Below, piece by piece: positions 1 to 46,739 of a stretch of DNA of 64,000 nt. The number at the start of each line of letters is the position of its first letter. Within the stretch, counting starts at the first letter, position 1. This DNA comes from Acidobacteriota bacterium (GTDB lineage: Bacteria; Acidobacteriota; UBA6911): the NCBI GenBank assembly GCA_963664705.1, contig OY761556.1:6464001-6528000 (forward strand). Direction: 5' to 3'. The notes beneath the pieces were generated by a model, which was not told the DNA's origin, did no database searches, and saw nothing but the letters and a program-made list of their open reading frames with translations. Made by a program: the position numbers and the translations under genes.

Positions 1-3000
1 TACGCCTGCGTCACGCTGAGAGAGCTGAGCGGTGTGTTCTTCTGCCGTAATATGGATCGGTCGATCGCCACGAAGGACCGATCTCAACGGCTCGCGAAAG
101 AATCCTTTGCGCGATCTCATGTATTCGTGTTCTGGCGGGATATCCTCAAGTCGCTTGTCCTGGCAGTTGCCACAAGTGCCGAGAAATGGCTTCGCCTGCA
201 AATGCCCGCAGACGGTGCACCGCAGCCATACATTGTCGAGCGCAAGGCGCAAGATCAGCCCATCGGTAACAATGAGACGGCCGGAGTCGTCGCCAGCAAA
301 TGTGTCCCGGGTGAAGACATCGAAAAGCTCATCCCGAAGCCGATCGAGATCGGTAATGGCCAGTCCCGTCTGTATGCGAAGGCGCTCGAAGAACTGCTTA
401 AGGCCGTCCGCAGCACGAATTGGTTGAAAATAGCCAAACTCGTCGATGCGAGCATCCTTTCCAAGTGCGGGATCGAATGCGAAGCGCCCAAGCATCTCGC
501 CAAGCCATGCGTTCGCAATCTCCTCGATCATGGGGGCCGTGCAGACACCAGCAAGTCGCCTTTGTAGGATGCGAAGTTTCGCAGGCGCGGCTTCGACTAC
601 AGCTGCGCAGGCTGCGACCAGAGAGTAATACGGATCCGCAATCTGGCGCAGCAGGGCAGTTCGGAAACGCGTTGGAGGGGTGGGATGCCACTTGTCCGCA
701 AGAGCAGTGTCTAGATCGTCGTAGTCCTTGCGGAATCGCGCACACTCCTCAAGCAATTCCTTCTGGTTGCGGCCATCGAAAAAGTGGAGGTAGTGGCGTG
801 CACAGATAGCAACAAATGCTGCGTATAAGGTCTCGTCTAGAGTCGCTGGAAGTGGTGTGGGAAGTTGGCTTAACTCTTGACATGCAAGAACGAGTGCTTC
901 TCTGAACGAATCGCGTTCGACCTCACGAGGTAGGTCGCGTGCGAGCCGGGCCGCTTTTTGCCGACCGTCGCTGAAGAGGAGAGCCTTGCGACCTTCGTTT
1001 GGATGTTGTTCGCTTAGTTCCTTTGAAGCGAATTGTGAGACAAACTGTTCTCTTACAAGGTTGGCGAATGGCTGCTCACCTTTTGTCGAAAGGTCCATTA
1101 TTTTTAGTGTCCCCCCGGATTGAGTCCTTCTCGTACAAGCCGGACAGACACCGAATGTAGTGATATTTTTAATCTTTTCAGCGGGAGCGTGTGCGCGGTA
1201 GCAGAGGAGAGTGCCCTCAGACGCTGTATGTGTTGTAGAAAGCACGCGCCCAGTTTTAACGTCAATCACCATTGGGACGACTGCCCCTCTCTGCTCAGGG
1301 TGGGGTTCCTCCACGAATAGGTGCAGTTCGTGGAGCGGTTGACCGAATTCCCTCAAATTCCCCCCCTGCTCGTGCCAGAGAAAGTCGGGAGTAGCGCTTG
1401 TCGCAAACGCTCGAAGATAAGCTGCGCCGCAGTCGCGATGAGTGAGGAGTTCGAATACTCGTCCTCCGCATTCGCACTGAGTATGTGGCTCAGCATATAG
1501 GCGACCTAGGAGCGTCTCTCCTGGAGAGTATCGCCGGGCTGAGCAACTCGAGTTTATACAGGCATAGAGCGGGGGAAGTCCGCGAAAAAGAAGGTGAACT
1601 CGCGTTGGTAATAGCGGTTGCTCTTCCCGTCCCTGTTCGGGTCGCCGAGCGAAGGTGCCGAGGGCAAGGAGTCCGTCTGTTGCTCGCTTGGCTTCAACAT
1701 GATCACTTTCTGGGAATAGCGTCTGAGACAGTGTCGAGAATTCACATGCATTGCCCGATGCTTGTTCGATGAGCAGTTCGAGGGGGCCGAACCCAGTTAG
1801 CGATTGGCAGACATATTTACGAGTCGCAATGTCGTTTCTATTGACAATCGGGGTGGGAGTTATCCAGCCTAGGTGTTTGGCAACGTCGGCTAAAACAGTG
1901 TTGGCCTCTCCAGGAGCGAACCCTGATGCCGCCAAAACATTTGGATTCACCGCCGCGAGAGCATTCGCCTCATCACGAGTTCCGGTGCGAGCGCCGGACC
2001 GAGCCTCGCGCGTACCACGAATGATCGCAAAATCCCTTTTGTTGGTTTCGCCCGTGAGATCCCGAGCGAACTCACGGACAGCCTTCTCTGCTGCTGGGTT
2101 CGTGCCCAGGCTGGCACTTGTCAGAATACAACGAAGCCGATCGCGTCCAATGCCCAGACGGGAGAGAAGACGACGAATCAGGAGACCGACCTCCGCTCCA
2201 CCAACGCCGCGGTACATGTGAGCTTCGTCGAGGATTAATATAAATTGATTATTTGCGTCGGAAGCGAGCCATGAGTGCGTTTGTTCAAACAGGGATCGCT
2301 CAATGGGCCTGAGCATCATATATTCGAGCATCGAATAGTTGGTGATGAGGAGGTCGGGTGCATGTATTTGCATCTCATGACGTGTGAGCAACTCTCGGTC
2401 TTGTGGCTGCGTCAGGAATCGCCGGCTCCAATAGTGACGGGTTCGCTCCTTTCCGGCATGTTTGCCACTCCTCACGAGTTCTCTCTCCTCGATGTCCCTC
2501 GCATAAAAATTCACGATGTCTTTCGCTGGCCACCGCCCGTGTTTTTTCAGTTCTGCAACCAATGCCTTATCTTCGATCTTTGACGATGTCTCAAGCCCTT
2601 CGTAGTAGCTAAGCAGAGCGTCGAGGTGTCGCTGATCCTTCGTACCGGACCGCACCCCAGGGTACGGAGTACGACTAGTGTACATGCCAAAGAGAACACG
2701 CCGTCCCCAGCGTTGCTCCATCATTTTTGCGAGCCTCTCGTCTCCAATAAGGCAACGAAGGCGGGCAGTCTGATCACTGACTAGAGCATTCATTGGATAT
2801 AGAAGTAGGGCTCGTACTCCGTGGAGTGCAAATGATGCACGTCGCTCTGTTCCCTCGAGAGCGAGGGTGCCAAGGATGGAATAGAGGAATGTCTCTGTTT
2901 TTCCTGAGCCCGTCCCTGTGGCTACGATCAAATCGTTACCATCAGCTCCCTTTGCGAAAAATTGTTCAAGTGCATCGGCCTGGTGTCGGTAAGGAGGATA

Positions 3001-3276
3001 GACGCCAATTCCTGGTTTCCATTCAGAGAGTTCCTGTAAGAGCCCTGTTACTGGTTTGGGTGCTCTCAGTCCGGAAAAACTACCGGAAACAGCATACGAA
3101 GGTGTTATCTCGATAAACGGACGCTGCGAGATGCCCCCGGGTTCTTCAAGGAGCAATCGCCTTTCCTCGATAAGTGCAGAATTGCGAATGTGATACTGCG
3201 CTTCAAGATATCTGCGCAACCTTAGGTGAATCCTCTGCGCAACCTCGTTGACCCCAAGTTCGATCTGGTGATTCAT
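1..3276 (-). CDS. druE: Druantia DruE-like large DEAD/DEAH helicase (5' 1092 codons; runs off window start, not in ORF track)
   Basis: Spot-translated by hand from the ATG at 3276 (RBS agaaagga). It starts MNHQIELGVNEVAQRIHLRLRRYLEAQYHI, then Walker A VATGTGSGKTETF, LYPMNALVSDQ, ILDEAHMYRG, and AEEHTAQLSQRD in the same frame at the window edge. It follows three genes sized like DruB/C/D. Confidence 0.85.
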   Translation of the reverse strand, partial: MNHQIELGVNEVAQRIHLRLRRYLEAQYHIRNSALIEERRLLLEEPGGISQRPFIEITPSYAVSGSFSGLRAPKPVTGLLQELSEWKPGIGVYPPYRHQADALEQFFAKGADGNDLIVATGTGSGKTETFLYSILGTLALEGTERRASFALHGVRALLLYPMNALVSDQTARLRCLIGDERLAKMMEQRWGRRVLFGMYTSRTPYPGVRSGTKDQRHLDALLSYYEGLETSSKIEDKALVAELKKHGRWPAKDIVNFYARDIEERELVRSGKHAGKERTRHYWSRRFLTQPQDRELLTRHEMQIHAPDLLITNYSMLEYMMLRPIERSLFEQTHSWLASDANNQFILILDEAHMYRGVGGAEVGLLIRRLLSRLGIGRDRLRCILTSASLGTNPAAEKAVREFARDLTGETNKRDFAIIRGTREARSGARTGTRDEANALAAVNPNVLAASGFAPGEANTVLADVAKHLGWITPTPIVNRNDIATRKYVCQSLTGFGPLELLIEQASGNACEFSTLSQTLFPESDHVEAKRATDGLLALGTFARRPEQGREEQPLLPTRVHLLFRGLPPLYACINSSCSARRYSPGETLLGRLYAEPHTQCECGGRVFELLTHRDCGAAYLRAFATSATPDFLWHEQGGNLREFGQPLHELHLFVEEPHPEQRGAVVPMVIDVKTGRVLSTTHTASEGTLLCYRAHAPAEKIKNITTFGVCPACTRRTQSGGTLKIMDLSTKGEQPFANLVREQFVSQFASKELSEQHPNEGRKALLFSDGRQKAARLARDLPREVERDSFREALVLACQELSQLPTPLPATLDETLYAAFVAICARHYLHFFDGRNQKELLEECARFRKDYDDLDTALADKWHPTPPTRFRTALLRQIADPYYSLVAACAAVVEAAPAKLRILQRRLAGVCTAPMIEEIANAWLGEMLGRFAFDPALGKDARIDEFGYFQPIRAADGLKQFFERLRIQTGLAITDLDRLRDELFDVFTRDTFAGDDSGRLIVTDGLILRLALDNVWLRCTVCGHLQAKPFLGTCGNCQDKRLEDIPPEHEYMRSRKGFFREPLRSVLRGDRPIHITAEEHTAQLSQRDAGV

Positions 3277-3299
3277 CAGTGATCCTTTCTGATTCACTG

Positions 3300-4334
3300 T
3301 TAGAACTCGATTCCGAGCCAGCGGAGCCTTTTGATTGCGAGTTCTTCGGAACGTACGAACGTCCACCTGCGCTGATAAGGATGATCTTCAGGAATCGTTA
3401 AGGAACCAAGCGCAGCAAACATACGCTGTTCTGAGCGGGGAAGCTCACTGGTAAACAGCCATTCATTTTTCCCATCTATGCATCTTGATTTTGCGCGGAC
3501 CGGATTCTTTGCTGCTAGGTCGTATGCGTACATAAGACGCCGAGCGTCAATACCATGGAGTTCGCATGTGCTCGTTATCTGATTGGAGCGCACATCAACC
3601 AGTCGATATTCACGCGCTCCATAAATCCGTGTGCGCCGGGCTAGTAGAGTGCCTGCCGTGGTCCCCGGAAAAGCGAACCACCGCTTAAACTGAGGAATTC
3701 CGGGTCCTACAGCACCCGGCGAGTAAAACTCGAATGAGTCCGAGTTCGCGGGTACATAGGGCTGGCGATCGAGAGAGTCAATAATCCCCTGCGCCCATTC
3801 TTGGAGCAAAAGCGAAAGCTTCGGCAGTTTCGCCCATGATTCCAGAGCCTCAACCGGCAGAATCGAAGCCAACTCCAATGGGAGACTGTCAAGATGACGA
3901 TGAGGACCATGGTATTGCACAGCATCTTGTGCGATTGGCAAAAATGCGGAAGGAATCCCTCCGACGAGCAAGTACCCCGACTTTTCAGGAAGCTCCACCA
4001 AGCGAGTAGTCGCTGGAACCCAGTAACCGTTGCTTAACTCAAGCAGATCTCCGGCGTCTTCCAGCAATGAGAGAGCCTCCCTCAACTCTGTGCGGAGGGT
4101 CTCTTTGCTGGTTCTTGAGCCCTCTGAAAGGAGTCTCCACGTTGGAAGTGCTGTGCCGAGCAAGCGGTTGACATGTACCTTGCTTGAGGGCGCGGCCATG
4201 CTCCAAACCGTAGATCGTAGAATTTCAAAGCGACTATCGGAGGGCAGGCATGAATTATCAATGCCTATTACGCGTCTAACGGCATTAGCCGCCCGCTGCG
4301 TCGGCCCATAAAACACCTCAAAACTCACTAGCAA
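3300..4334 (-). CDS. DruD-like hypothetical protein (344 aa)
   Basis: Long ORF overlapping the upstream gene and directly before the DruE-like helicase. Size and position fit type I Druantia DruD; no motif recognised. Confidence 0.6.
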   Translation of the reverse strand: MLVSFEVFYGPTQRAANAVRRVIGIDNSCLPSDSRFEILRSTVWSMAAPSSKVHVNRLLGTALPTWRLLSEGSRTSKETLRTELREALSLLEDAGDLLELSNGYWVPATTRLVELPEKSGYLLVGGIPSAFLPIAQDAVQYHGPHRHLDSLPLELASILPVEALESWAKLPKLSLLLQEWAQGIIDSLDRQPYVPANSDSFEFYSPGAVGPGIPQFKRWFAFPGTTAGTLLARRTRIYGAREYRLVDVRSNQITSTCELHGIDARRLMYAYDLAAKNPVRAKSRCIDGKNEWLFTSELPRSEQRMFAALGSLTIPEDHPYQRRWTFVRSEELAIKRLRWLGIEF

Positions 4335-6373
4335 AGCCTCCTTCGAAGACGGCTTAGCGTTGCGGCGAATGTTCCCTCTTCATCTCCCGCTTTGCTAAGC
4401 GCATTAGCTTGTTCTTCGGCGTTCAGCGCGGTGGCAACATAGGGGAGGATAAGACCATTCAGCAGTGCATCGGTGATGCGCTCCTCCCCACTATAGAGTC
4501 GGGTAAGTGCCGAGCCGAAGCGCTCTAAGGCGGGCCGAATTTCGAGACACTCCGGCCAAGCATCAATGAGCGAATCAATCACGGCAATCGGAACATCTCC
4601 AAGTGCCATGAACTCGCTCGACAAGGAGAGATCTCCCAGTGCAGTCTCCCCATTCGTTGATGCTGAACTCGGCTCAGGATAGATGGCAACCGCGTGGCTC
4701 CAGAGTTGGGGTGTGACGGGCACCGTGGTTGCGCCTGCCACGAATGTAGCAGCCAGCTTTAAACCGCCCATTGAGGCGATCGTTGACAATCCTGCGTCAG
4801 TCATCTGAAGGAGCGGCAAAACCGATGCTTCAAGCGGCGATCGATTAGCTCCCTCGAGTACAACAAGCGAGATGCCATCGATGTCCTTTGCGGCTGCAAC
4901 TGCATCTACGATGCCGCCCCCAGGAGCTTCGTCGAAATCCATCGGTTGGATGGAGTTCGGTGCAACGTGAATAATCAGCAGACGGTCACCGCAGATGCCG
5001 CGAGAGTATGCGGCGAGCGCAGCCAGTGCCCCAGGCCCAAGAGTAACGGGCATGAGACTTGCCGCCGTCGCAGCATGGATATGAATCATCACTGAAGGAT
5101 CGACGCCTCGTGCACGAGCTGCGTTCATTAGCATGCGTCGAAGAGAGACCCGGTCATTTATGCTCTCGCCTCTTGAGCTTGACCAATTAACGGAGCATCT
5201 CAATTTTTTGGGGGTGGGCGTGCTCGTTAAACGGCTTCCCTCGATACCAAGCAGCGGCCGCAACACGCTGACTTCTGCGAGGAGATCCAGCGGACGACTA
5301 ATAGCCTCAATCACGCGCGCTTTCACCGCCGCTTCGGTTTCACCTGCGACGATCACCTCTTTGTTCTTAAGCTCGATCAGCTTTTCCTCTGTCCTGCGCA
5401 ACTCCATCTCATTGGAGTTGAGTTGAGACATCATCTGGGCGTGCGCTTCTGTTGCATCTTTTAGTGCAGCGACTTCGTGCGCGAGCCGCTTTTCGAGGTC
5501 AGTCCGTATGCTTTGCTCGGTGTCTGTTTGAACCTTAGCTTTGAATTCGTCGATCGCTGCCTTTATTGCCGGATGCTCTCGCAAGATCTTCGATAACTCA
5601 TTTGCTTGGCTCGCAACAACTTCGGTATGCTCGAGAAGTGTTAGTGCTCGGTTTATCCGATAGAGATCCACTTCCGCATCGGGACTAGTTCCTTGAGATG
5701 CAAGTGCATGAGCTGCATCAGCGAGTTGCTTCTTCGTCTGTCCGGTGTCGTATCCTGCCTCTTTCGCTATGCGAACAGCAGTCTCCAAAGCTCGGCGCAG
5801 AACGAGAGCATCATCGTCCCAGTCGACGTAGCCGGATGGAGCCTTGCGGTCGACCTTCAGTAGCCGTTCATCTTGGTCTACCATAATAGATCGCACTTGC
5901 GAGCCCGTGAATATGGGTATGCGAGCCAAGTTCGTCCCGTTCAACTTAGCCATGCCTGTTTGTAAACGCGTTAACTCGACAGGTCCGACGAGAACGTCAG
6001 GCTCGCACCATAGTAATGCGCGTATCGTTCCAGCGTGTTTGGGCAACCGGATAAGTTCAGAAGCGAGCAAGGATCGGACAGCGGACACGGTCCCACAACT
6101 TCTCAGATCAAGAACCTCGAAGGCAGGTTTGGGATCTACGAGCCTATACTTGTATTTCTCGTTGGCGTTTTGTTCAGGCTCGAAGATTATGAGTGCGCCT
6201 TCTATTGCCATTTGAGCATTCGGCCAGAAGACCTGTCCCATGGATGGGAACTCCTCCATTGCATCTACCTGACGCCAATCGGTCTTTTGAAATTCAATAA
6301 GAGGACGTACTCCAGCGATAGGGTGGCCACCCTTGTCATGATGCGTCCATTCCACGACACCAAGCAATTTCAT
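4328..6373 (-). CDS. DruC-like protein with coiled coil and degenerate AAA/McrB-like C-terminus (681 aa)
   Basis: Central coiled coil; C-terminal VVLEGANRSPLE resembles a degenerate Walker B region; size and synteny fit DruC. Confidence 0.6.
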   Translation of the reverse strand: MKLLGVVEWTHHDKGGHPIAGVRPLIEFQKTDWRQVDAMEEFPSMGQVFWPNAQMAIEGALIIFEPEQNANEKYKYRLVDPKPAFEVLDLRSCGTVSAVRSLLASELIRLPKHAGTIRALLWCEPDVLVGPVELTRLQTGMAKLNGTNLARIPIFTGSQVRSIMVDQDERLLKVDRKAPSGYVDWDDDALVLRRALETAVRIAKEAGYDTGQTKKQLADAAHALASQGTSPDAEVDLYRINRALTLLEHTEVVASQANELSKILREHPAIKAAIDEFKAKVQTDTEQSIRTDLEKRLAHEVAALKDATEAHAQMMSQLNSNEMELRRTEEKLIELKNKEVIVAGETEAAVKARVIEAISRPLDLLAEVSVLRPLLGIEGSRLTSTPTPKKLRCSVNWSSSRGESINDRVSLRRMLMNAARARGVDPSVMIHIHAATAASLMPVTLGPGALAALAAYSRGICGDRLLIIHVAPNSIQPMDFDEAPGGGIVDAVAAAKDIDGISLVVLEGANRSPLEASVLPLLQMTDAGLSTIASMGGLKLAATFVAGATTVPVTPQLWSHAVAIYPEPSSASTNGETALGDLSLSSEFMALGDVPIAVIDSLIDAWPECLEIRPALERFGSALTRLYSGEERITDALLNGLILPYVATALNAEEQANALSKAGDEEGTFAATLSRLRRRLC

Positions 6374-8070
6374 GAGCGAGCCCCTCCAACTTCTTTTTTG
6401 CGTCGTCGCAGATCCAGTCGAGCACGGATGAGGGGAGCAGCTCCGACTAATCGCATTACCAGAGAAGTCTCTGATCGAGGTTGAACAAGGAGACTTGGGG
6501 ATACAGACTCCTCAATATGAGTGTTCAGGCTCGAGACATGATTGTGCCAAGCCAGCCGGCTGCCAGCAAAATCCTCACGAGGGGTGTCGGCGGCCGTTAA
6601 CACCGGGACGATCTCAATATGCCCGAAGTTGTCCGCCTCCAGTTCAATGCGCGATGCGGTTGAGAACGCAGCCTTAATCATTCTTTCCGCGTCGGCATGT
6701 GCGAGACCTCGGCTGGAGCGCTGCTTGCCCCGCTCCCACAATGTGAGTGAAATACGTACGTTATCAACGCCGAGGTCGATTCGTACTTCAGGCAACTCAT
6801 GCGCAGTAATGCTGATCCTGTGGCTTGCGGCTTGCCATGCCTCGATACATAGTTCGCCTATAAAAACACGTATCCGCGGTGTCTCTGCCAACAACTGTAG
6901 CAGCGCAACACGTGACGGTTTCTGGGCGAAACAGATATCGATGCTGGCATTCAACTCCGTATCGATATCAAGACGCGCAAGGGCAGTGCTAGCAGATCCC
7001 ATGATGACGTGAGCGATATTTTCTTCTGACGCTTTTACGATGGTTCTAAGGGAATTTGTCCCAATCGTGCAGGAAGCAAGAGCTTTGTCGCCACAGTTGG
7101 GAGCCTCCAAGGTGAATATGGGCGAGTCTCCAACCCAAAAGATGGGCTTATCGTATTCATTGTACGCGCGGGGTGGTGTGACGAGTTCCACACTCCATGG
7201 GCGGGGTAGTAACTCATGCCCGAGTCGCTTAAGCCAGATCGATGTGCTGTCAATGTCCTCAGACGGGAAATGAACCTCCCAGATTGTCCAAAGTATGCTT
7301 GTGCTGGAGAAATGGGCGCAAGCCTGAGCAACTATCGAATCTGGAGGAGCGCAGCGCTCATCTGCGAGCAGGATGAGTGTCTCCCCCTGATGTACTCCCG
7401 AGCCCGCGCGGAGTCGCGTCCACTCTCCGCAACGGAGTCGGAATAACGTTCCCTTGACTTCAAGTCCTCGCGATTTTAGGTGCCAGCGTTCCTTGTCGAT
7501 CGTCTCCGGCCATACTCCCTCCGGTTCTGTGCTAAATTCTTGGAGACTTGGAACAACGCTAACGCGCGCGGCTCCAATGCCAGGCCGCAGGTCGAGTGCG
7601 CTGACTTTCAGAAGAAGCTTTTGCCCCGCGAAAATTTCTATATATGCCGATCGCAGTTCGTTGAGTGTTCCATCCCCCAATTCATCGCCTGGGATCTCCG
7701 GTAAGCGCAGGCCTAACCCCCAAATTCCATCAAGTTGGGTTAGCAGCAATCCGAGTTCGGAAGGATCCTCCTCGACCTCTGCGAGAGTGGTCGTTGTGGC
7801 TCCACTAGCTGTATATGTTCCGGGATGGTACTGATCGCATTCAGGGGTTCCCTCGCCAGGGTAGTGACGGAAGTGCGGTCTCTGGATATGGACTTCTGGA
7901 AGGTATACTTGACCACCGCAGCCGGGACGCGGACACACATACTGGTGCCTTCGAAAGGCGTTTTGGGCCGCCACGATTTTTCCGCTAAATGCATCCTTTG
8001 CGTAATCCATAGATCGTCTTAATTGTTCACTGTTGGGGCCAGTTTCATCGCCTCCAATTGCATTCAGCAT
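6370..8070 (-). CDS. DruB-like protein with N-terminal CoiA-like Zn finger (start may be 8010)
   Basis: YVCPRPGCGGQVY...PHFRH...C zinc-ribbon motif; first gene of the four-gene operon ending in the helicase. Confidence 0.6.
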   Translation of the reverse strand: MLNAIGGDETGPNSEQLRRSMDYAKDAFSGKIVAAQNAFRRHQYVCPRPGCGGQVYLPEVHIQRPHFRHYPGEGTPECDQYHPGTYTASGATTTTLAEVEEDPSELGLLLTQLDGIWGLGLRLPEIPGDELGDGTLNELRSAYIEIFAGQKLLLKVSALDLRPGIGAARVSVVPSLQEFSTEPEGVWPETIDKERWHLKSRGLEVKGTLFRLRCGEWTRLRAGSGVHQGETLILLADERCAPPDSIVAQACAHFSSTSILWTIWEVHFPSEDIDSTSIWLKRLGHELLPRPWSVELVTPPRAYNEYDKPIFWVGDSPIFTLEAPNCGDKALASCTIGTNSLRTIVKASEENIAHVIMGSASTALARLDIDTELNASIDICFAQKPSRVALLQLLAETPRIRVFIGELCIEAWQAASHRISITAHELPEVRIDLGVDNVRISLTLWERGKQRSSRGLAHADAERMIKAAFSTASRIELEADNFGHIEIVPVLTAADTPREDFAGSRLAWHNHVSSLNTHIEESVSPSLLVQPRSETSLVMRLVGAAPLIRARLDLRRRKKEVGGARS

Positions 8071-8572
8071 GAGAGGCTGGCCAAAAGGCTGTTGTGGGAA
8101 AATATTGTTGCCTGTTGCTCTCCTTTCCCTATTCTGCAGGATCGGACCCGCCTACCAGTTCTGATGCAAATAGACTCTAGAATGGGCAGGCTGAGATTCT
8201 CTTGTTGCAGACTGCTCGTAGACCGTGTTCTTGCTGACGCTGATTCGCCCTACTATAGCAGCCCATATAATTGGCGACAATAAGTTTAATGGGCATCGAA
8301 AGCGTCGAGTAGCCAAGCAGCCGGATTGATCCAATCCAGCATTTATTTCTTTTGAGTCACTTTGTCTTACCAATCCTCTATCAAGTTCATCCATGGGCTT
8401 GACGAGTCTTTACTAAATTCGAACCTCCGACTTTGGCAAAGAGTAATATGTAAAAATGAACTCCTAGCTATACAAGTGCAGTTATGTGTCAGAATCGGTG
8501 AACTTGACAGAAACATGAGAGAAAAGACTGTCGATGTCTTTATTTGTCGAGCCTCATAGGGAGAAACAGATT

Positions 8573-10072
8573 ATGAAAATGCCGATTGTTCAGTTGCAGC
8601 AATTTATTCAGGCCATTCGAGATTCTGGATACCGCGGAACCGGTTCTGCTTTGGCTGAATTGGTCGACAATGCTTATGAAGCTGATGCAAAGAGCATCGA
8701 TATCATGGTTCAAATGGACTCCGAATATCCTTCGTCGAAAACTATCCTCGTTTCTGACGATGGATTGGGAATGCCTCCAGAGGTTCTTGAAATAGCCCTT
8801 CAATTTGGCGGAAGCAATCGTTTCGGAAATCGAACGACGATGGGCCGGTTTGGCATGGGATTGCCAGACAGTTCGGTCAGTCAAGCCCGCCGCCTAGAAG
8901 TGTATACTTGGACTGGTCCTAATGATGTTTGGTGGTCTTATCTTGATGTTGACGAGATTCAAGAGGGGAGATTGAGTGAAATCCCTACTCCTGTTCGAAA
9001 GAGATTGCCTGAAAATTATGGTGTGCGCCCATCAAGGAGTGGAACTGTCGTTTTATGGCGGAAATGTGATCGGCTGTTTTTTAAGGGCGAATACGCCCTA
9101 ATACGGAAGTTGAAACAAGAGCTAGGACGTATTTTTCGCCGGATGCTTTCTGATGGAAAGAGACTGAGGATTAACTGTGACGCAGTGCTGCCAATCGATC
9201 CATTATTTCTGCGACCCGGAAATAATCTTGTTGGAGCAACTCCCTATGGAGATGTGTTGGAATATCAAATAAGAGATGCGAGTGCCTTCGGGGGCAAGGA
9301 GGGCAGAATAACGGCACGCTTTGTAGAACTGCCCATAGATAAATGGGGCTCTCTTTCTAATGCTGATAAGCAGGAGTTCGGAATAAGCAAAAATGCCGGA
9401 ATCTCAATTATGAGGGCTGGCCGAGAGATCGATTTCGGATGGTACTTTATGGGCGGGAAAAGGAAAGAAAATTATGACGATTGGTGGCGTTGTGAACTTG
9501 AGTTCCCGCCACAACTCGATGAGATGTTTGGAGTGACTCACACTAAACAGGGCATAGCACCATCGGATTACCTGTCGCAATTACTGACGCCAGATTTTGA
9601 GTCAATTGCACATAAGCTGAACGCGCGCGTTCGATCCACCTTTATAAAAATCAAAAATGATAAGCTTCTTTCCTCTGAAAGGAGGGCTAGCGAATGTGAT
9701 AATTTGTTTTCACCTCCGAGCCAGGTTGTAAAAGCCGGAAGGATAAAGCACAAACAGAGCATGCGGATAACTAAAAAAATACACTATAAACTTTCAACCA
9801 AACCGCTCACTGGTTCGGAATTTTATATCCCCAAAATGAACGGTAATGAAGTGCAATTGATCCTAAATGAAAATCATCCTTTTTGCGAACGACTTTATAG
9901 CTCAATTAGGCAGGAACAGCACTGTGATACGCGCATGATAACAAAAGCATTGGAGCTCATTTTGTTTGCAGCTGCAAGGGCAGAAATCAGCACAGAGGCC
10001 GCTCAATCCAGAGTCGCGATTGAAGCATTCCGACGCTCCTGGAGCGATCTTATGGCTGCGTATTTGTCATGA
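8573..10072 (+). CDS. GHKL/MORC-type ATPase (HATPase_c_3)
   Basis: GHKL motifs ALAELVDNAYEA, DDGLGM, GRFGMGL, GTVV; RBS gggaga before the ATG at 8573. Confidence 0.85.
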   Translation: MKMPIVQLQQFIQAIRDSGYRGTGSALAELVDNAYEADAKSIDIMVQMDSEYPSSKTILVSDDGLGMPPEVLEIALQFGGSNRFGNRTTMGRFGMGLPDSSVSQARRLEVYTWTGPNDVWWSYLDVDEIQEGRLSEIPTPVRKRLPENYGVRPSRSGTVVLWRKCDRLFFKGEYALIRKLKQELGRIFRRMLSDGKRLRINCDAVLPIDPLFLRPGNNLVGATPYGDVLEYQIRDASAFGGKEGRITARFVELPIDKWGSLSNADKQEFGISKNAGISIMRAGREIDFGWYFMGGKRKENYDDWWRCELEFPPQLDEMFGVTHTKQGIAPSDYLSQLLTPDFESIAHKLNARVRSTFIKIKNDKLLSSERRASECDNLFSPPSQVVKAGRIKHKQSMRITKKIHYKLSTKPLTGSEFYIPKMNGNEVQLILNENHPFCERLYSSIRQEQHCDTRMITKALELILFAAARAEISTEAAQSRVAIEAFRRSWSDLMAAYLS

Positions 10073-12072
10073 AAATGCAATACATACCAATAAATCCGAG
10101 CGTGCGTCGAGGGGGACGTCGCGATTTTGCTAAATACTTTAAGAAGATACATCGCCAGATTGGCAGAACACAACAAGACATTGTTCCCGAATTGATTCGC
10201 AAGCTTCACGATGAACTGCAAATTAAAGCGGATGAGCCGATTGGCGATGACATCCTTAAAGGATTGTTCGCTAAAAGCGTGATATTAGATCTTTTGGGAA
10301 CTGGTTGGAAAATTAGGGTGGCGAATGGAGTAGTCGAAATTGCACCACCCCGCGAAAATGCAATAAATCCTTCTGAACTAAAAGAATCTGTACGTCGCAG
10401 TCATCAATTTGAACGAGAAGAGCAACTCAACCTACCATCAGTGCAAGACTTCATCCGCAGGATGGAACGTCAGCAACTGACACCAAAGGGATGGCATTCA
10501 ATATTTTCTCTAATGAGAGATGGAAAGGAATTATCGGTTACCCTTCAGGATATCTTGCAGACCTCAAAGATGAATGGTAATTGTCAGATCTCTGCACTTT
10601 CAACCGCGATTGCTCCTTACATTCAGCCAATAACTGAAGACGCCATATGTGAACAAACCGGACTGTTACTGAGAGATGTCTGGCGATACTTCCGGCTCAC
10701 TTGGGTAAATAGCTATAAGCCGCTGCCAGGGCGCACCATGTCCTTTTTGGTCCGAGATGCTGCTGCAAAAAATCATCCGGTAATTGGAATCGCCGCCTTG
10801 GGCAGTTCTGTCGCTCAGCAGCGCTTACGAGATACTTGGATCGGTTGGGATCAGGAAACCATGGTAACAACCATAATGAACGAACCGAGCGAGCGCTACG
10901 CGCAATGGATAATCCATTCGCTTCAGAGCCTTATTGAGGGAATTTACTTGAATGATCTTATATCTGATCAAATTCTTTCCCGATCTGATATAAAAAATCC
11001 AACAATTGAGTGCATTCAACGCTTGGAGCGGGAAGCTGAAGGCGCAATAAAGATGCATAGGCTTTATCCCCACGCGGCAGCCCACAAAAAATCAAACCAT
11101 ACAAATTGGAGAACTGAGGCTCAGACATATCTCTATCGAAGCAAACGATGCAAAACTCTTGCAAAGCTGCTACGTATCCGTGCGGCATTTCAGCGATGCG
11201 GCCTCACATCTTCTCCCAGACATCGGCTAGGAGCCGCTCTAGAGCGGGCAGATGCACGAAATGCTTTGATGCAGCTTGTGCGCTTAATAAAGGCACAACG
11301 TGTCGGAATAGATATGATGGATATTACTGTATGCGGAGCGATTGCACCATACAACGCACTGCTTGGCGGCAAGCTTATTTGTATGCTTCTTTGCAGTCCT
11401 GAAGTCATTTCCATGTATGGCAAGAGATATGGCAAGCAGGTAAGCATTATCGCTTCATCAATGAAGGGAGAAGCGGTTATTCGTAAGCCGCGATTGGTTC
11501 TGCTTGCAACAACTAGCCTTTTTGGAGTTGGGTCAAGTCAATATAATCGAGTAAAAATCCCTTGCGATCGTATGGGAGGTCGTAAGGACGAGCAGATTGT
11601 ATTTGGAGAACTAGGGAAAAGCGAAGGATATGGCACATACCACCTTAGCCATAGGACTATGAAATTGGGGGATATACTTCTTGCCAGGCAAAAGGGTGGT
11701 CGTCGAGTAAATAGCATCTTTGGTGAAGGAGTGAATCCACGAATGCGAAAACTTAGAGAAGCTTTCGATATTGTGGGTTTGCCTTCAGACGAAATATTGC
11801 AGCATAGAAATACGCGAATTGTATATGCTGTGAAATTGGCACGGAATTTTTCAGACGTCTTGTTGGGCCTAACCTCATCCGCACAATATTTCACCTCCCT
11901 ACGCAATCCAACGGAGAGAACAAAACAGATTGCGGCGTATTGGAGGGAACGTTGGTTGTTTGGACGAATCGGGCGACCTGGAGTGTTGGAAGAGGTAGAA
12001 AAGCACACTCCGACTTATCCGGTGACACATGGGGCGAGAGTCATTTTGCCTCTTTCAGATACCGCCATATGA
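10069..12072 (+). CDS. druA: Druantia DruA-like protein (DUF4338), long 667-aa form
   Basis: Motifs WRYFRLTW...PGR...LVRD...VIGIAALGS...RDTWIGW, CGAIAPYNALLGGKL and TTSLFG..SSQYNR are typical of DruA; ATGA overlap with the ATPase gene. Confidence 0.8.
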   Translation: MKMQYIPINPSVRRGGRRDFAKYFKKIHRQIGRTQQDIVPELIRKLHDELQIKADEPIGDDILKGLFAKSVILDLLGTGWKIRVANGVVEIAPPRENAINPSELKESVRRSHQFEREEQLNLPSVQDFIRRMERQQLTPKGWHSIFSLMRDGKELSVTLQDILQTSKMNGNCQISALSTAIAPYIQPITEDAICEQTGLLLRDVWRYFRLTWVNSYKPLPGRTMSFLVRDAAAKNHPVIGIAALGSSVAQQRLRDTWIGWDQETMVTTIMNEPSERYAQWIIHSLQSLIEGIYLNDLISDQILSRSDIKNPTIECIQRLEREAEGAIKMHRLYPHAAAHKKSNHTNWRTEAQTYLYRSKRCKTLAKLLRIRAAFQRCGLTSSPRHRLGAALERADARNALMQLVRLIKAQRVGIDMMDITVCGAIAPYNALLGGKLICMLLCSPEVISMYGKRYGKQVSIIASSMKGEAVIRKPRLVLLATTSLFGVGSSQYNRVKIPCDRMGGRKDEQIVFGELGKSEGYGTYHLSHRTMKLGDILLARQKGGRRVNSIFGEGVNPRMRKLREAFDIVGLPSDEILQHRNTRIVYAVKLARNFSDVLLGLTSSAQYFTSLRNPTERTKQIAAYWRERWLFGRIGRPGVLEEVEKHTPTYPVTHGARVILPLSDTAI

Positions 12073-12395
12073 TAGGTGATCAGTTTTTGGGTAGAACGGG
12101 GATGAGTTGTTTGGGGATGCCATAGCCCGTCTCAGGATCGGCGGCTCCCCTCCGACGCTGTTGCTGTCAACAAATACGATACCTCGATGCAACCTCGGAC
12201 CTGACTCCTCGATGGCAGATGTTCCAGTTCATTATTATTCCTGGTTTGGCAAATCGGGGAATGAAGTCGTCTATCAGGTTGCCAGTGATTCCTCGTGAGA
12301 TTTCGAAACAGCACAAGCAAACAGTGATGTGTCGCTCGTAACAGCGGCCATATTCGAGTCCTGTTTGCAATGCCCTATTTTTCGCAAAGATCATC

Positions 12396-25879: not shown

Positions 25880-26527
25880 TTATACAGGCAGGAATAGGTG
25901 ATAGATGACGAATACATTTCGTGAAAGGGAGTGCACTGATTCGCCGACTCCCGGCTTGCCGGCCAGAATAGATGATTGCTTGAAAGAGAGTGGTTTGGCA
26001 CACTTTAGTTTCTCGCGATTAATCTCGATCAATTTGTGAACGGAATTGAGTGCTCTCTCGGCATCGCCGTCGAAAACATAACCGAGCATGCCGCCATTCG
26101 CCAGCCCTTTTGAGTAACGCTCTTCTATAAAACACATCATTCCTTGGTCCCCAGTCACGTACTCGGAGACAAGCGATTGCCACCCGGATGGAAACGACAC
26201 GCTTAATCGCTTTGCTTCAATTACAAAGCAAGGCCACGGCTTTCTTGCGCCGGTTGAAAAAAGAAACAGTAGATCAGCTCTGCCTAACTGCTTTTGCCGT
26301 GCTCTCCTTCGGTCATACAGGGGAATCTCCCGAAATATCTCAACTGGGCGTTCTCTAAAATCCTGATCTTGGTCAAGCAAGTCGCGCAGACGGTCACTGA
26401 GGTCATTTTCGAGTTCAGTTTCATGTGATTTCTTCAGCCGCGCGCCACTTCGAAGTACTGCCGCGAGGATGAAGGGAATCTCTTCTTCTGGAAATAGAGG
26501 GATCCATTCGGCTGCATCGTTTCTCAT
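25880..26527 (-). CDS. Putative PD-(D/E)XK nuclease-like protein
   Basis: E...GRADL...IEAKRL pattern; ATGA-coupled to the methylase. Confidence 0.55.
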   Translation of the reverse strand: MRNDAAEWIPLFPEEEIPFILAAVLRSGARLKKSHETELENDLSDRLRDLLDQDQDFRERPVEIFREIPLYDRRRARQKQLGRADLLFLFSTGARKPWPCFVIEAKRLSVSFPSGWQSLVSEYVTGDQGMMCFIEERYSKGLANGGMLGYVFDGDAERALNSVHKLIEINREKLKCAKPLSFKQSSILAGKPGVGESVHSLSRNVFVIYHLFLPV

Positions 26528-29500
26528 TTTGTCTTCGCCTGCCGTCGAGCTTCCGCAACGTGAGCAGCCAGTTCAACTGCATCGTTAAGCGCCGAAGATC
26601 GCATCCAGCAGCCTCGCAGGGAAGGTTTAACGATGTAGATGCGTGGCCCATCGAAAATCAGACCACTACGCGAGAACTGCAGCCGCCCCAAATGCTCCGT
26701 GCTGGAATCCTGCAGCTGGCGGAGAGCGCTCACTAGTTGGTTTGAGATGTTTCGGATTTCGAAATCGCGTGTAGTTCGGCTTTGGGTGAGCTCGACAAGA
26801 GCAATGCCGGATTCTTTATCCGCACCGCCAGTTGCACGTACGCGCACACCTTGGCTCGCCCAACCATTGAGCGTTTCGGTCAGCATCGTGGCATAAGGTT
26901 TCAGTGCAGCAGAGTCGATCGTTTGGAGTGTAGGAATTGATTTTGCAGCATCTAGGGAAGCGGGCGTGTCGCTCCTATCGAAGATATCGCAGGTGTCCTC
27001 AACCAGAGCTTGTTCCTGTTTGCCAATACCAAAGTACTCATATACGAGCGGTTCAAGTTCCGCCTGGAGATTACGAGCCTTCTCACGCTGGCCTTTTAGC
27101 CACATTTGAATGTCCGAATCGCCAGCATTCCCAAATAGTGGGCCGAGGGCTTGTGTATTTGTCCGCTTGTGCCGTTTTTCGGCATCGACTTCCATGTCTT
27201 TCATTAACTTGCGAATCCTCACAGCGGCCTGACTCACAATGGAACTGCTGTTGGATTTGGCTGCTTCGCTTTCAGGTAGAAAGAATGGAAGTCGGAGAAA
27301 CTCCGGCATGTGAACCTTGTCACGCTCTGTACCAATATTGGAAGCTGTATGAAAAACGAAGTAGCGAGCAAGCCTAGAACGTAATACCACGGCAAGCCAC
27401 ATTAGAAGGTCCGTGTCGCCTGAAGTCCCAGCAATGGATTGGAGCGCATGCTGGAAGCGCACTTGGTAATCAAAAAATGCTGCCGTGCTGAATCCCTGAT
27501 TGACCAAAACAAGCGGACCCTCGAAAATTCGTTCATTGCGGGAGCGGTGCAATACATCAAGTCGATAACCCTTCGACTTAAAATAGGTGCCTATTTCGTG
27601 GGTTAGGCTGCGGGGCAAGACGAACAAATCCTCGATCAGTTTTGGAGTGACGAAAGGATCAGATTGCGGCCACCTCATGGCCTTAGGTTTTTCCTCCTTG
27701 CCACCCGCACGTAGTGGCTGGAAGCCTTGACCTTTGCACCAACGTTTCTTGCCTTGCTTAAACTCAGTTACAGTTCCGACAAGATCTCCAAGTGGAGGAA
27801 GCGTAAACAGGTAATTGAGGAACTTCAGATCCCGTGGTGTCCCCCAAAGGCGACTTTTCCACGCGATGCTGCTGGCCTTCTGTTCGGCTGCAGCGAGCAC
27901 GAATTGCAGGGGGATCCATTTCCGGTCCTGTGGAGCAACCTGGATAACGCCGTCTCGGAGGTCGGCTCGGGATACCTTCGGCGTAATATATTCGATCTCG
28001 TGGATGGCCTCATCGGGCTTGTGTGGAGTGAAGAGAACAATGTTGCATGGACACAGGGATTCCTTGAACAAAATGAACCTGTAGTCAGCGAGCTGGACGA
28101 CCTTTTGGAGAGTAACGCCACGAAGCCAGTTGGATTGGAAGGTATCGGTTTGGTTTAGGAAGACCTTTGATGGCAGAAGCAGGCAAGCATGGCCATCAAC
28201 TTTCAGCACCTTGGGAGTCTCTTCCATGAACTGATGTGCAACCTGTTTTGTGCCGCGTCCAGCCCATGGCGGATTCCCTATTACCAGGTCGAATTTGCCT
28301 TGCCACTTCGGAGCGATATCGAAGAAATCCGCTTCGTGGACGACCGGATGTTCTGGTGTTCGCTTTGCTCCCATGGCATGGAGAAGATTTGGGAGTTTCT
28401 TGCCAGTATGGAGTTTATAAGCGCGAATGTGAGGCGGGTCGAATTGGTCCAGAAATGCAAGATACAGACTGAAGCAGGTAATACGGCAGGCGGTAAGATT
28501 CTTGTCCACACCACACAAGCAGTCGAGGCGCTGCAGCAGGGCATCGGCCTTAGTCTGGGGTTGCGGTTCTTTTTGTCCAGCGCGCCACTCAGCCGCAAGC
28601 CGATTGAAAAGCATCACAAGAAAAATTCCGGAACCGCATGCTGGATCCAAAAATCGCCGCTTTTCAGCAAAAAGAGGTTTAATGCCTTCCAACGCCAGAT
28701 CAAGCGCTAAATCGGCAACGAAGCGCGGTGTGTAAAATGCGCCGGCGGAATGCTTCCCTTCTTCGTCCTCACTCTCAAGAAAATTCTCATAGATGGCGCT
28801 GATGGTCTCAATGGGGATAAACTTGAAATTATAAGCCCAAAACCCAAGAGAGCGCTGTCCTCGCCCTTTTAGCAAATTGTCTCCGTTCAGGAAACGATGA
28901 ACAACCTCCACATGCTCAGCCCGAATGAGTGAAAGCTCTACACCGAGAACCTCATCAAACATGCTGCCGTTAAAATCACGTTGCAGTGCGGGGAAGAGCG
29001 TGCCGTATAACGCCCCAATCGGATCCGCTGATGCGGCGAGCAGTTCATGAAGGTGCTGCCACGACTTCCCTTTGAAGTAATCGGACAATTTGATGATTCC
29101 GCGATCGCAGAGATAGCAGGCAAACAGTATTCGTCCAAGGAAAGTATGGGCGAATTGAGCTTCCAGGCCACGATCAATGAGCAAATCGCGCACGGCAGTT
29201 AAATTATCAAGAAGATAGGCATCAACTGTTTCGCTGGGCTGGAAATTTTGTTCTCGGCCACCGGCGTAATATTGGCCAGTACCAACTTGAACATAAAAAC
29301 GCTCTGCCCAGCTTGCTTGCACGGCCAGGTCGAGTATTTCAACCAGCCGGTCATTTACATCTCCATCCGTCACTCGTTCGGGATTAATCGGGCTTGTCAT
29401 GGAAGAGAACACGCGCACTTTTTGGGGATCGCGAAGGAGCAGAATGGTTGCGACTCCTTGATTCCAGAATTGGAGATGTGCATTCGCAGCATTTTGCGCA

Positions 29501-29706
29501 GTGACCGGCCTGGACTCATCTCGAACGTAGACGGTGGGAATGCCGTTTAGTGTGAGAATGCCAGACAGATTCATATCATCCCAAGCATGGAGCAGCATGC
29601 GCTGATAACCATAGATCTCAGCAGCATGCAGAATTTCATCTCGTGAGCGGTAAAAACGGAATCCGCACGGAGGCTCCGGAAGTTGGGGAAGGCGCGCAGT
29701 ACTCAT
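26524..29706 (-). CDS. N6-adenine DNA methyltransferase (type IIG/Eco57I-like architecture)
   Basis: GAFYTP, FLDPACGSGIF, IGNPPW; start at 29706 overlaps the lexA stop. Confidence 0.88.
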   Translation of the reverse strand: MSTARLPQLPEPPCGFRFYRSRDEILHAAEIYGYQRMLLHAWDDMNLSGILTLNGIPTVYVRDESRPVTAQNAANAHLQFWNQGVATILLLRDPQKVRVFSSMTSPINPERVTDGDVNDRLVEILDLAVQASWAERFYVQVGTGQYYAGGREQNFQPSETVDAYLLDNLTAVRDLLIDRGLEAQFAHTFLGRILFACYLCDRGIIKLSDYFKGKSWQHLHELLAASADPIGALYGTLFPALQRDFNGSMFDEVLGVELSLIRAEHVEVVHRFLNGDNLLKGRGQRSLGFWAYNFKFIPIETISAIYENFLESEDEEGKHSAGAFYTPRFVADLALDLALEGIKPLFAEKRRFLDPACGSGIFLVMLFNRLAAEWRAGQKEPQPQTKADALLQRLDCLCGVDKNLTACRITCFSLYLAFLDQFDPPHIRAYKLHTGKKLPNLLHAMGAKRTPEHPVVHEADFFDIAPKWQGKFDLVIGNPPWAGRGTKQVAHQFMEETPKVLKVDGHACLLLPSKVFLNQTDTFQSNWLRGVTLQKVVQLADYRFILFKESLCPCNIVLFTPHKPDEAIHEIEYITPKVSRADLRDGVIQVAPQDRKWIPLQFVLAAAEQKASSIAWKSRLWGTPRDLKFLNYLFTLPPLGDLVGTVTEFKQGKKRWCKGQGFQPLRAGGKEEKPKAMRWPQSDPFVTPKLIEDLFVLPRSLTHEIGTYFKSKGYRLDVLHRSRNERIFEGPLVLVNQGFSTAAFFDYQVRFQHALQSIAGTSGDTDLLMWLAVVLRSRLARYFVFHTASNIGTERDKVHMPEFLRLPFFLPESEAAKSNSSSIVSQAAVRIRKLMKDMEVDAEKRHKRTNTQALGPLFGNAGDSDIQMWLKGQREKARNLQAELEPLVYEYFGIGKQEQALVEDTCDIFDRSDTPASLDAAKSIPTLQTIDSAALKPYATMLTETLNGWASQGVRVRATGGADKESGIALVELTQSRTTRDFEIRNISNQLVSALRQLQDSSTEHLGRLQFSRSGLIFDGPRIYIVKPSLRGCWMRSSALNDAVELAAHVAEARRQAKTK

Positions 29707-30308
29707 TTGCTTATAAACCTTATTATTGCACGAGCAACACCTTGAATTTGAAGATCTGTTACGGGAATCAGATCGGAGAAAAGGGGATTTTCGGCCTGCA
29801 ACCACACTTTTCTCCCCTGGCGGATGAACGTTTTCAGGGTGGATTCGCGATCAATAAGAGCGGACACTATATCACCGTTTCGCGGAGCAACGCCCTGCTC
29901 GATTAGAACGATATCTCCATCAAGGATCTGTCGACCTATCATCGAATTGCCTCTCACACGAAGCGCAAAGGCTCGCGAGCGATCGTGGATACCGTAAACA
30001 GCAGGGTCAACATTAAGGCGTTCATCGGGTACTGTCAATGCTTCCTGAGGCTGTCCCGCAACGATGCATCCCAGCAGAGGAATACCGACAGCATTCTGGA
30101 CGAGCCGGATGCCTCGAGCAGAACCTTTTGCCCGCGTCAAAAATCCCTTTTTCACCAGCGCGACAACATGATCAAAAGCCGCCTTTGGACTCTTATACCC
30201 GAAGTGTCTGCAAATTTCGCGGTATGTTGGCGCAGGCTCGCCCTCCTTGCTCTGTTCTTTAAGGAAATCGAGCACTTCTCGCTGCCGCGCTGTTAGATTT
30301 GATCCCAT
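29703..30308 (-). CDS. lexA: LexA-family repressor
   Basis: N-terminal winged HTH (LTARQREVL...PTYREI), Ala-Gly site VAGQP, GNSM Ser and TLK Lys. Confidence 0.9.
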   Translation of the reverse strand: MGSNLTARQREVLDFLKEQSKEGEPAPTYREICRHFGYKSPKAAFDHVVALVKKGFLTRAKGSARGIRLVQNAVGIPLLGCIVAGQPQEALTVPDERLNVDPAVYGIHDRSRAFALRVRGNSMIGRQILDGDIVLIEQGVAPRNGDIVSALIDRESTLKTFIRQGRKVWLQAENPLFSDLIPVTDLQIQGVARAIIRFISK

Positions 30309-41355: not shown

Positions 41356-41658
41356 ATTCCACTCACTGTTTTTAAGCCGCAGAATTTCACTTTAGAGTTT
41401 TACAGGCTATTCTGTAATTACGGGCTCCTGCCCAATTACCTGATAAGAATCCGCAATATCGAAGCTGCTGTAAATGGCCTTCGTGTCCATCGTTGTGATT
41501 CAAGGCTCAATAGCTGCGTTCAAATATCAACCTCTCAAGCTGCAGATTGTGAGGAACAAGGTTCCCATAGGCCTAGCTGTCTCAAATATTTGCACTTTTC
41601 GCTTGACAAACGTCTCATATATGTCGATTATCATCTCATGTATAGCGATAATCGTTTC

Positions 41659-46174: not shown

Positions 46175-46568
46175 CTTTTCCTTTCCTTTGCTTAGAACGT
46201 AAGAAGGCAAGGTATTTCAGCAGTTCCTCTTCTTCTTCTCGGCTAAGAGGGCCGAGAGATGCCGGAACTACTGATCCCTTCAGCTGCAGCGAAGCTGCCC
46301 GCAATTTTGGCGATGCCTTTATGTATCCTGCCTTTTGCATCAGTACCTCATAGGGAACCTTATAGAATTCCGCTAACGCATGCAGGATGTGAGGCGACGG
46401 CTTGCTGATCTTATCGTTCTCCAATTGGCTTAGATATGCATTCGAGACCTCAGTGCCTTCCTCTACTTCCCGCAGTGTATGTTTTCGAGTTTGGCGTATG
46501 TTTCGAAGAAACTCACCGAGGCTTTGTCCAGCGCCTTCCGGCGATGCCAATTCATTTTTGCCGCTCAT
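46167..46568 (-). CDS. XRE-family HTH repressor (CapH-like)
   Basis: LREVEEGTEVSNAYLSQLEN; C-terminal YLAFLRS resembles the CapH cleavage region. Confidence 0.85.
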   Translation of the reverse strand: MSGKNELASPEGAGQSLGEFLRNIRQTRKHTLREVEEGTEVSNAYLSQLENDKISKPSPHILHALAEFYKVPYEVLMQKAGYIKASPKLRAASLQLKGSVVPASLGPLSREEEEELLKYLAFLRSKQRKGKDE

Positions 46569-46614
46569 TGCTTTCTCCTTTTTGGTTCTCCTTAGGGATT
46601 TATTTTAATAGCCT

Positions 46615-46677
46615 TTGCTAAAGTTAGCAAGCATTGCGTGCTGGTTGCTTGACATACTACGCAACGCGTAGTATATT
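46615..46677 (+). promoter_or_regulatory. Sigma70 promoter with overlapping palindromic operators
   Basis: TTGACA (46649-54)-17 bp-TATATT (46672-77); atactacgc-aac-gcgtagtat (46654-74); ttgctaa-ag-ttagcaa (46615-30). Confidence 0.75.
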
Positions 46678-46739
46678 TAGATTTGTGAAATATGGAAATG
46701 TTTATTTCCAAAACTCTTAACCTTTTTAAGGAGACAATT

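Follow-up and report, generated by a model that had tools for sequence, protein, structure and literature searches.

A probable variant of type I Druantia with a MORC-like ATPase and a long DruA beside druBCDE

Type I Druantia is the closest described system to a six-gene locus at the left end of a 64,000-nucleotide stretch of an Acidobacteriota bacterium genome (contig OY761556.1, positions 6,464,001 to 6,528,000). The whole stretch is called the window here (G000:6464001-6528000; G numbers denote genomes and L numbers loci). System definitions follow the available text of PMC8565338 and PMC7251935, and Pseudomonas putida pKF715A (L019) serves as the example of type I (PMC7251935). In one 263-phage screen, type I Druantia provided the broadest defence, according to the available text of that study (10.1101/2024.04.14.589459). 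The window locus has the five families of type I, DruC only tentatively, matches DruE1 best, keeps the gene order B-C-D-E and has no methylase gene in the locus. It differs in that its druA encodes 667 amino acids (aa) rather than the 409 of L019, forms a separate divergent unit coupled to a MORC-like ATPase gene and has its own history. Its DruB, DruC and DruD are only 24-30% identical to those of L019, over short stretches, and its DruE ends in a C-terminal extension of about 160 aa and is followed by a NERD-helicase gene. Because the co-directional five-gene layout with a short druA first, as in L019, is not found here, the locus is a variant rather than a plain member, and its placement as a variant of type I Druantia is very probable.

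Other described systems resemble parts of the locus. Prokaryotic MORC genes lie mostly in restriction-modification operons with superfamily 2 (SF2) helicases, as far as the available text of PMC2292703 goes, and these MORC and paraMORC operons, like MzaB, resemble the locus in pairing a GHKL and S5 ATPase that has intact motifs with a neighbouring SF2 helicase and a nuclease of the PD-(D/E)xK type. Their partner is a DNA methylase, whereas the partner here is a GNAT-fold DruA and the helicase is of the YprA type; no DUF4338 or GNAT partner is named in the same available text (PMC2292703). The DndFGH and SspFGH systems in which DUF4338 is fused to DndF likewise join the long DruA family to an ATPase, but they do so with a DndF/SspF P-loop ATPase and an FGH arm in place of MORC and druBCDE (PMC10853773, available text). 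The Mom protein of phage Mu is a GNAT that modifies adenine with charged tRNA (a tRNA-dependent DNA adenine aminoacyltransferase, PDB 8bv8; PMC13219725, available text). DruA shares the GNAT fold and, as proposed here, a role in protecting DNA by a base adduct, but it is a bacterial protein of roughly three times the size, it is linked to defence operons, and it has no detectable sequence similarity to Mom, in which R111 and S124 are catalytic.

No text joining MORC or GHKL proteins with DruA or Druantia was found in the literature, in a search that left outside Doron et al. (2018) and supplements such as that of PMC10853773, which may list such loci. MORC is also unmentioned in the available text of 10.1101/2025.09.15.676423, 10.64898/2026.05.12.722862, 10.64898/2026.05.13.724758, 10.1101/2025.09.30.679545, PMC10853773 and PMC13639185. 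The locus adds a MORC-DruA pair that takes the place of druA in one druBCDE clade, the exchange of arms, an alternative ATPase partner of the SspF type and the NERD gene.

Gene content and family assignment

Open reading frame (ORF) calling on the window places all six genes where the original prediction had them, namely four coupled minus-strand genes (566, 681, 344 and more than 1092 aa) and, across a divergent gap, a GHKL ATPase gene whose end overlaps, by ATGA, the start of a gene for a 667-aa DUF4338 protein.

1..3276, minus strand: druE, leaving the window at its left edge (in full G000:6461283-6467276); 1092 aa in the window, 1997 aa complete
3300..4334, minus strand: druD homologue, 344 aa; PADLOC DruD1 E 6.7e-12
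4328..6373, minus strand: druC homologue, the marker of the druBCDE clade, 681 aa; PADLOC DruC1 E 1e-3
6370..8070, minus strand: druB homologue, 566 aa as called; PADLOC DruB1 E 1.5e-13
8071..8533, no strand: divergent intergenic region, 463 bp, GC 0.449; the composition shifts here between the arms
8534..10072, plus strand: MORC-like GHKL ATPase, 512 aa; Pfam HATPase_c_3 E 2.3e-20
10069..12072, plus strand: long DruA (DUF4338/PF14236), 667 aa; ATGA overlap with the ATPase gene
G000:6459535-6461283 (L001:15535-17283), minus strand, outside the window: NERD-nuclease and UvrD-like helicase gene, 582 aa

In PADLOC, the products of all six genes except the ATPase match a type I Druantia family. 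The helicase matches DruE1 (E=0, 1890 bits over residues 6-1834) far ahead of the next type, DruE2 (661 bits), and its Pfam domains (DEAD, Helicase_C and MZB) are those of a type I YprA-family SF2 helicase with an MrfA Zn-binding domain. The three middle genes had been taken for druB, druC and druD, and their products hit the corresponding profiles with the E values listed above, that of DruC being weak. In DruB the match covers the N-terminal 104 aa, the protein has an N-terminal Cys/His cluster, and direct BLAST to the DruB of L019 gives E 1.4e-8. DruD is 24% identical (E 4e-8) to the gene in the druD position of L019. The DruC1 match lies on a stretch that also matches coiled-coil proteins; BLAST to the DruC of L019 gives E 0.002-0.026, and position and size fit druC. 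For DruC, 111 homologues were found, with druB and/or druD flanking nearly all of the 51 metagenome loci described below that reach far enough, and searches of plasmid and viral-contig databases returned no relatives.

The stop codon of druE overlaps the start of the next gene by one base, and the product of that gene matches NERD (E 2.5e-8) and UvrD-type families in Pfam. A NERD gene follows all 15 DruE proteins of at least 1979 aa that align over the C-terminal extension, several of them near-duplicates, and is absent after the 1807-1857-aa forms wherever flanking sequence is available. Its product is 65-82% identical within the window's subclade, and NERD genes also follow unrelated long DruE1 proteins (L016, L017, L094 and L097). 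A resemblance of the DruE extension to a LexA/S24-like domain was considered and not supported (BLAST E 2.5; no Pfam family for the window row; best PDB profile match E 0.17).

The 667-aa protein matches the 675-column DruA1 profile of PADLOC (PDLC00001, E 5.8e-177) and Pfam PF14236 (E 9e-34), and a genome search found no other DruA. Since PADLOC already holds a profile of this length, the long DruA itself is not new. Relative to eight short DruAs, the protein has the same conserved core together with an N-terminal helical extension and a helical insert of about 150 aa (about residues 262-412). Its pI is 9.9, and many invariant Arg, Lys and aromatic residues are common to the long and short forms. 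The structure model (mean predicted local distance difference test, pLDDT, 90.6) shows a split GNAT fold, in agreement with a GNAT assignment for DUF4338 that is already published (PMC10853773, available text).

The GHKL ATP-binding motifs of the ATPase are all intact (ELVDNA 42, DDGLGM 75, GRFGMG 104 and SGT 169). Its structure model (pLDDT 89) returns MORC4, MORC2 and MORC3 structures as the top nine Foldseek matches (E about 1e-13), with Hsp90 structures close behind (E about 1e-12). The S5 motif, GhXhhpXXRhl, reads GISIMRAGREI at 289; seven of its eight specified positions are present in 54 of 54 rows, and the hydrophobic position after R is present in none of the 54. The ATPase is therefore called MORC-like, a wording that the S5 motif leaves neutral between MORC and paraMORC. 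MzaB is its best-matching family at 79.4 bits, far below the cut-off of 850, which places the locus outside MZA, and no other Mza family was matched by any of the six locus proteins in the PADLOC scan.

The two arms differ in base composition, as the original prediction had judged by eye. GC content is 0.452 and 0.457 in the ATPase and DruA genes and 0.529-0.542 in druB, druC, druD and druE (genome, 0.532), and GC content at third codon positions (GC3) is 0.425 in the ATPase gene and 0.406 in druA against 0.515-0.535 in druBCDE. A single assembled contig from a public run, possibly of the source sample, spans window positions 3777-12200 with 0 differences, which rules out an assembly chimera where the two arms meet. 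Each of the six window genes is intact, as is the NERD gene. The alignment of homologues with DruB begins at its residue 21, and druB therefore likely starts at about 8010 (~546 aa). Likewise, the closest MORC homologue of the ATPase has 499 aa and an AGGGAG site precedes the ATG at 8573, which suggests 8573 as the likely start. The divergent gap, first put at about 500 bp, is 463 bp as called and would be about 560 bp with these starts. A promoter scan of the gap found one site against 1.1 expected by chance, and so no promoter is shown there.

Linkage and separate histories of the two arms

A DruC profile of 96 rows defines 51 metagenome loci of this druBCDE clade, many of them short or near-duplicates, so the counts are not independent. 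MORC and/or long DruA is present in 17 of the 51 and short DruA in none. The pair's genes appear in all seven loci with at least 2 kb of downstream sequence and in nine of the 13 loci with complete druB-E, and a tenth of these, L023, shows them via the overlapping contig L024. Four arrangements occur: upstream and co-directional (L021, L026 and L029), upstream and divergent (L040 and L065, as well as L011 and the window), downstream and co-directional (L047, L049, L058, L059 and L067), and downstream and convergent with the DruA part only (L030 and L062). The divergent layout emphasized in the original prediction is thus real here and not a defining trait, and merely random adjacency of the pair to druBCDE, which that prediction had named as a refuting outcome, does not fit this survey. 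In two samples of 401 genomes, each including its centre genome, type I DruE is found in six and four genomes and any DruA in nine and seven. Eight of the ten DruE matches have one DruA within about 21 kb (five short without MORC, three long with MORC, never both); of the other two, the first sits on a contig of 5 kb and the second, a weaker match, has no DruA. A functional link between the arms is considered highly probable.

MORC and long DruA also behave as a unit elsewhere. Among GTDB loci with DruA (n=12, 11 of them long), a GHKL gene lies directly upstream of all 11 long forms, that of L013 being a more distant paralogue. Exactly the same longest-contig size is shared by 30 of 119 DruA matches with one of 120 MORC matches (0-1 in shifted controls), co-location being inferred from this length agreement only, and identities to the window's MORC and DruA genes correlate across those pairs (rho 0.71). 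MORC is absent from 12 of 12 informative short-DruA loci. Long DruA without MORC occurs in eight of 12 long viral-contig matches, in two of the four long plasmid matches examined (five of 16 plasmid matches were examined) and in G258. Those scanned have an SspF/DndF-like ATPase fused or adjacent and/or an SspH-like gene downstream, and the part of their flanking ORFs that was scanned contains no phosphorothioate-modification family. Wherever tested, then, long DruA has an ATPase partner. Complex prediction of DruA 1-662 with MORC 222-512 (S5 and C-terminal half) gives a score of 0.53, and the highest score among three controls is 0.00; the runs share at least 81% of their contacts, and the partner pLDDT is at least 78. 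The score mark is reached by 116 of 157 solved pairs and two of 215 mismatched pairs; at 0.60 or below it is reached by 18 solved pairs and both mismatches, and support for a MORC-DruA contact is therefore weak.

The two arms have separate histories. Mantel tests on eight loci, a reduced set relied on after three near-kin loci were dropped, correlate MORC with DruA (rho 0.49, p 0.01) and DruB with DruC (rho 0.85, p 0.003), and cross-arm values are 0.03-0.23 and not significant (DruA with DruB 0.07, DruA with DruC 0.16). On all 11 loci, cross-arm rho is 0.37-0.48 and significant. DruAs linked to druBCDE interleave with DruAs of other contexts in a quick tree, and an approximately unbiased (AU) test omitting partial, long-branch and unknown-context rows rejects the druBCDE-linked DruAs as one clade (p-AU 1e-66, 10 rows versus 15). 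In L011 and L021, DruE is about 80% identical to that of the window and DruA only 45-46%. An apparent close relative has MORC 92% and DruC 71% identical, on contigs of equal size. These comparisons support MORC-DruA as a separately inherited two-gene module that occupies the place of druA in this druBCDE clade. The original prediction had offered a new subtype with a MORC partner or a separate two-gene module replacing druA; both hold together, because linkage is non-random (0 of 51 loci with short DruA) while the histories of the arms differ (AU test, Mantel tests and GC3).

Related genes occur in other settings. A three-gene arm, comprising an unlabelled protein of ~950-1000 aa, DruD and DruE1, is found in L009, L010, L012, L072, L083 and L106-L111; it takes either short DruA or MORC with long DruA (the latter in L009, L010, L012 and L072), and its large protein may replace DruB and DruC. 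In L015, L018, L075-L082 and L098/L099, a MORC-less long DruA is joined, by fusion or as the preceding gene, to SspF/DndF-like, SspG-like and SspH-like genes, and L018, a haloarchaeal plasmid, has a divergent type I DruE operon as well. A second MORC paralogue (~600-660 aa) lies near the MORC-DruA pair in L003, L005-L008, L071, L112 and L042, adjoined by a sigma-70-like gene in L005 and L042. In L074 and L094-L097, genes for a ~1030-aa protein and an SNF2-like helicase (DpdE/BrxH-like) come after MORC-DruA, and a DruE1-NERD unit faces them in convergent orientation. Short DruA precedes an unlabelled gene of ~390-440 aa and a HerA-like ATPase in L100:8726-12855, L101:9754-14200 and L102:2301-6351, and the available DNA around these three contains no Druantia helicase. 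Broken copies include a frameshifted MORC-DruA-DruE in G1011 (L114/L115) and a split DruA in G258 (L098), and several loci of the DruC clade have lost part of druE or druC by truncation (L056, L048 and L050/L051).

Proposed roles of the arms and rival explanations

The reading preferred here, by a modest margin over even chances, is that the MORC-like ATPase and long DruA mark host DNA and that druBCDE with the NERD-helicase, inherited separately, destroys DNA without the mark. Whether DruA carries out DNA-marking chemistry is judged an even call in its own right. Like Mu Mom, DruA would place an acyl or aminoacyl group on a base within a short motif, and this base is probably adenine. A MORC dimer would bind the long DruA, perhaps via the extra helical insert, and would load or time it on the chromosome; in relatives, the MORC dimer is an ATP-driven DNA clamp. 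DruE with DruB, DruC and DruD would unwind unmarked DNA. The cut would come from the NERD nuclease-helicase, because the nuclease (Vsr) domain of type I DruE is predicted to be inactive (10.1101/2025.09.15.676423, available text).

Structural comparison and published modification data bear on the proposed marking. In a VIA structure search with the DruA model, nearly all of the top 50 rows are GNAT-fold proteins, and the top match is Mu Mom (Z 9.3, root-mean-square deviation 3.6, 169 aligned). PacBio sequencing can report a bulkier adenine adduct as N6-methyladenine (m6A). A new m6A-type call appears at CAGCTGNC in PacBio data when Escherichia coli has type I Druantia, the system contains no methylase, and the gene behind this adenine signal is stated as not known in the available text of that study (10.1101/2024.04.14.589459). 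The joining of MORC-less long DruAs to SspF/DndF-like ATPases and SspH-like genes suggests that an ATPase with a long DruA fills the slot of an exchangeable self-marking arm. A bolder joint reading, put forward tentatively and with the balance against it, would make DruA a bacterial Mom-like DNA acyltransferase and the ATPase with long DruA a portable self-marking cassette for unrelated restriction arms, among them druBCDE, the three-gene DruE operon and SspFGH/DndFGH-like genes. If true, such a cassette would define a form of restriction-modification that relies on acylated bases and in which a MORC clamp loads the writer, much as eukaryotic MORC proteins tether epigenetic writers.

Several observations weigh against self-marking by a separately inherited arm. 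The lead of Mom over ordinary GNATs (Z 8.8 and 8.4) is under 1 Z, and Mom is therefore tied with them; no sequence-level match joins DruA and Mom (hhalign probability 0.9%), Foldseek of the DruA model against the PDB returns nothing at E<=1e-3, and the best match in a profile search of PDB sequences with DruA is not meaningful (E 0.026). DUF4338 fused to DndF has been read as a co-effector acetylating proteins (Rakesh et al., PMC10853773, available text), and DndFGH is commonly decoupled from modification genes (PMC10853773, available text), which weakens the slot argument. The pair is not seen at some loci of the clade: around L027 it does not appear within 6.7 kb on the upstream side or 1.2 kb on the downstream side, L020 and L022 have an SspH-Lon gene upstream instead (the metagenome contigs of these three, and of L028 and L031, are covered in part), and in L056 the pair is missing and druE is broken. 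Of ten genomes with MORC-DruA that were checked, six lack DruE1, all of them incomplete metagenome-assembled genomes. The DruC assignment stands on E 1e-3 plus position, and the quick DruA tree has long branches. Free reassortment of the arms is also harder to square with a sequence-specific mark read by the restriction arm; it fits acylation of protein or tRNA, or a mark with a conserved or loosely read motif. An Eco57I-like methylase lies 14 kb away and was considered as the cognate marker, but it was rejected: it sits on the element backbone with no sign of partnership, relatives not having been queried for it.

The acylation of protein or tRNA just mentioned would make DruA a toxic back-up effector or a switch for DruE, with MORC sensing infection or keeping DruA inactive and no DruA mark on DNA. 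This explanation is the main rival, though an unlikely one. In its favour, most GNAT matches have proteins or small molecules as substrates and score level with Mom, the same role has been proposed for DUF4338 fused to DndF (PMC10853773, available text), Hsp90 structures (E 1e-12) trail the MORCs closely in Foldseek, and freely reassorting arms suit a partner whose sequence specificity need not be matched. Set against this are the motif-specific adenine signal gained by hosts of type I Druantia, a system without a methylase (10.1101/2024.04.14.589459, available text), the strongly basic character of DruA with its invariant Arg, Lys and aromatic residues in both forms, and the presence of DruA beside eight of ten type I DruE matches, which is more in keeping with a core part than with a back-up. 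A narrower alternative, very improbable, retains the DruA mark on DNA and reduces MORC to an Hsp90-like chaperone or regulator of the long form that never touches DNA. Short DruA functions with no MORC at 12 of 12 loci, and both the Hsp90-family matches and the weak predicted contact of DruA with S5 and the C-terminal half suit such a role; the nine best structural matches, however, are MORC ATPase modules, the S5 motif is kept at seven of eight specified positions in all 54 rows, and where long DruA has no MORC, its partner is an unrelated P-loop ATPase from DNA-restriction systems.

It is improbable that MORC-DruA is an independent defence or mobile module merely clustering with druBCDE in defence islands, leaving druBCDE with NERD to work alone or as a remnant. 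A passenger pair predicts that druBCDE keeps its own short druA, which is seen in none of the 51 loci, and this genome has no other DruA; the link also survives four rearrangements of parts that are each rare (about 1% of genomes), and the six locus genes and the NERD gene are intact. In favour of independence, GC and GC3 differ between the arms, whose histories are incongruent, and the pair is also found where a second MORC and a sigma-like gene are present and DruE is absent. Moreover, only one of 110 other DruC matches shares its longest-contig size with the 120 closest MORC matches, and none with the closest DruA matches.

Self-marking by MORC and DruA, if true, would provide a bacterial model of how MORC proteins work as well as a new DNA self-mark. 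The locus points to DruA as the writer, adds two unlisted parts, the MORC-like ATPase and the NERD-helicase, and naturally splits the system into two transcription units with different histories, so that each arm is testable alone. Should DruA acylate proteins instead, the locus would still be an undescribed subtype, one that classifiers report without its MORC and NERD genes.

The integrated element

The locus lies inside a conjugative element of about 121 kb that is integrated at tRNA-Met (G000:6401473 to window position 58687). This assignment follows from an integrase beside the tRNA gene, from the conjugation genes and from a 50-bp repeat of the 3' half of the tRNA, a 94% copy found about 121 kb upstream (G000:6401473-6401522).

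57190-58473, plus strand: tyrosine integrase (Pfam Phage_integrase)
58611-58687, minus strand: tRNA-Met, right end of the element (tRNA detection)

The right part of the element encodes a VirB-type type IV secretion system, TrwC relaxase, TrwB, RepB primase, ArdC and RadC/JAB, and the left part carries TonB receptors, an ABC transporter, DUF2117 and deoxyhypusine synthase as cargo. Other defence-like cargo is found at window positions 26524-29805, 41590-45142, 45275-47732 and 50331-52991. These regions hold the Eco57I-like methylase beside a LexA-like gene, an AAA ATPase and S8 peptidase pair, an IrrE-like peptidase with a Prok-E2 protein, and a TPR-CHAT protein.

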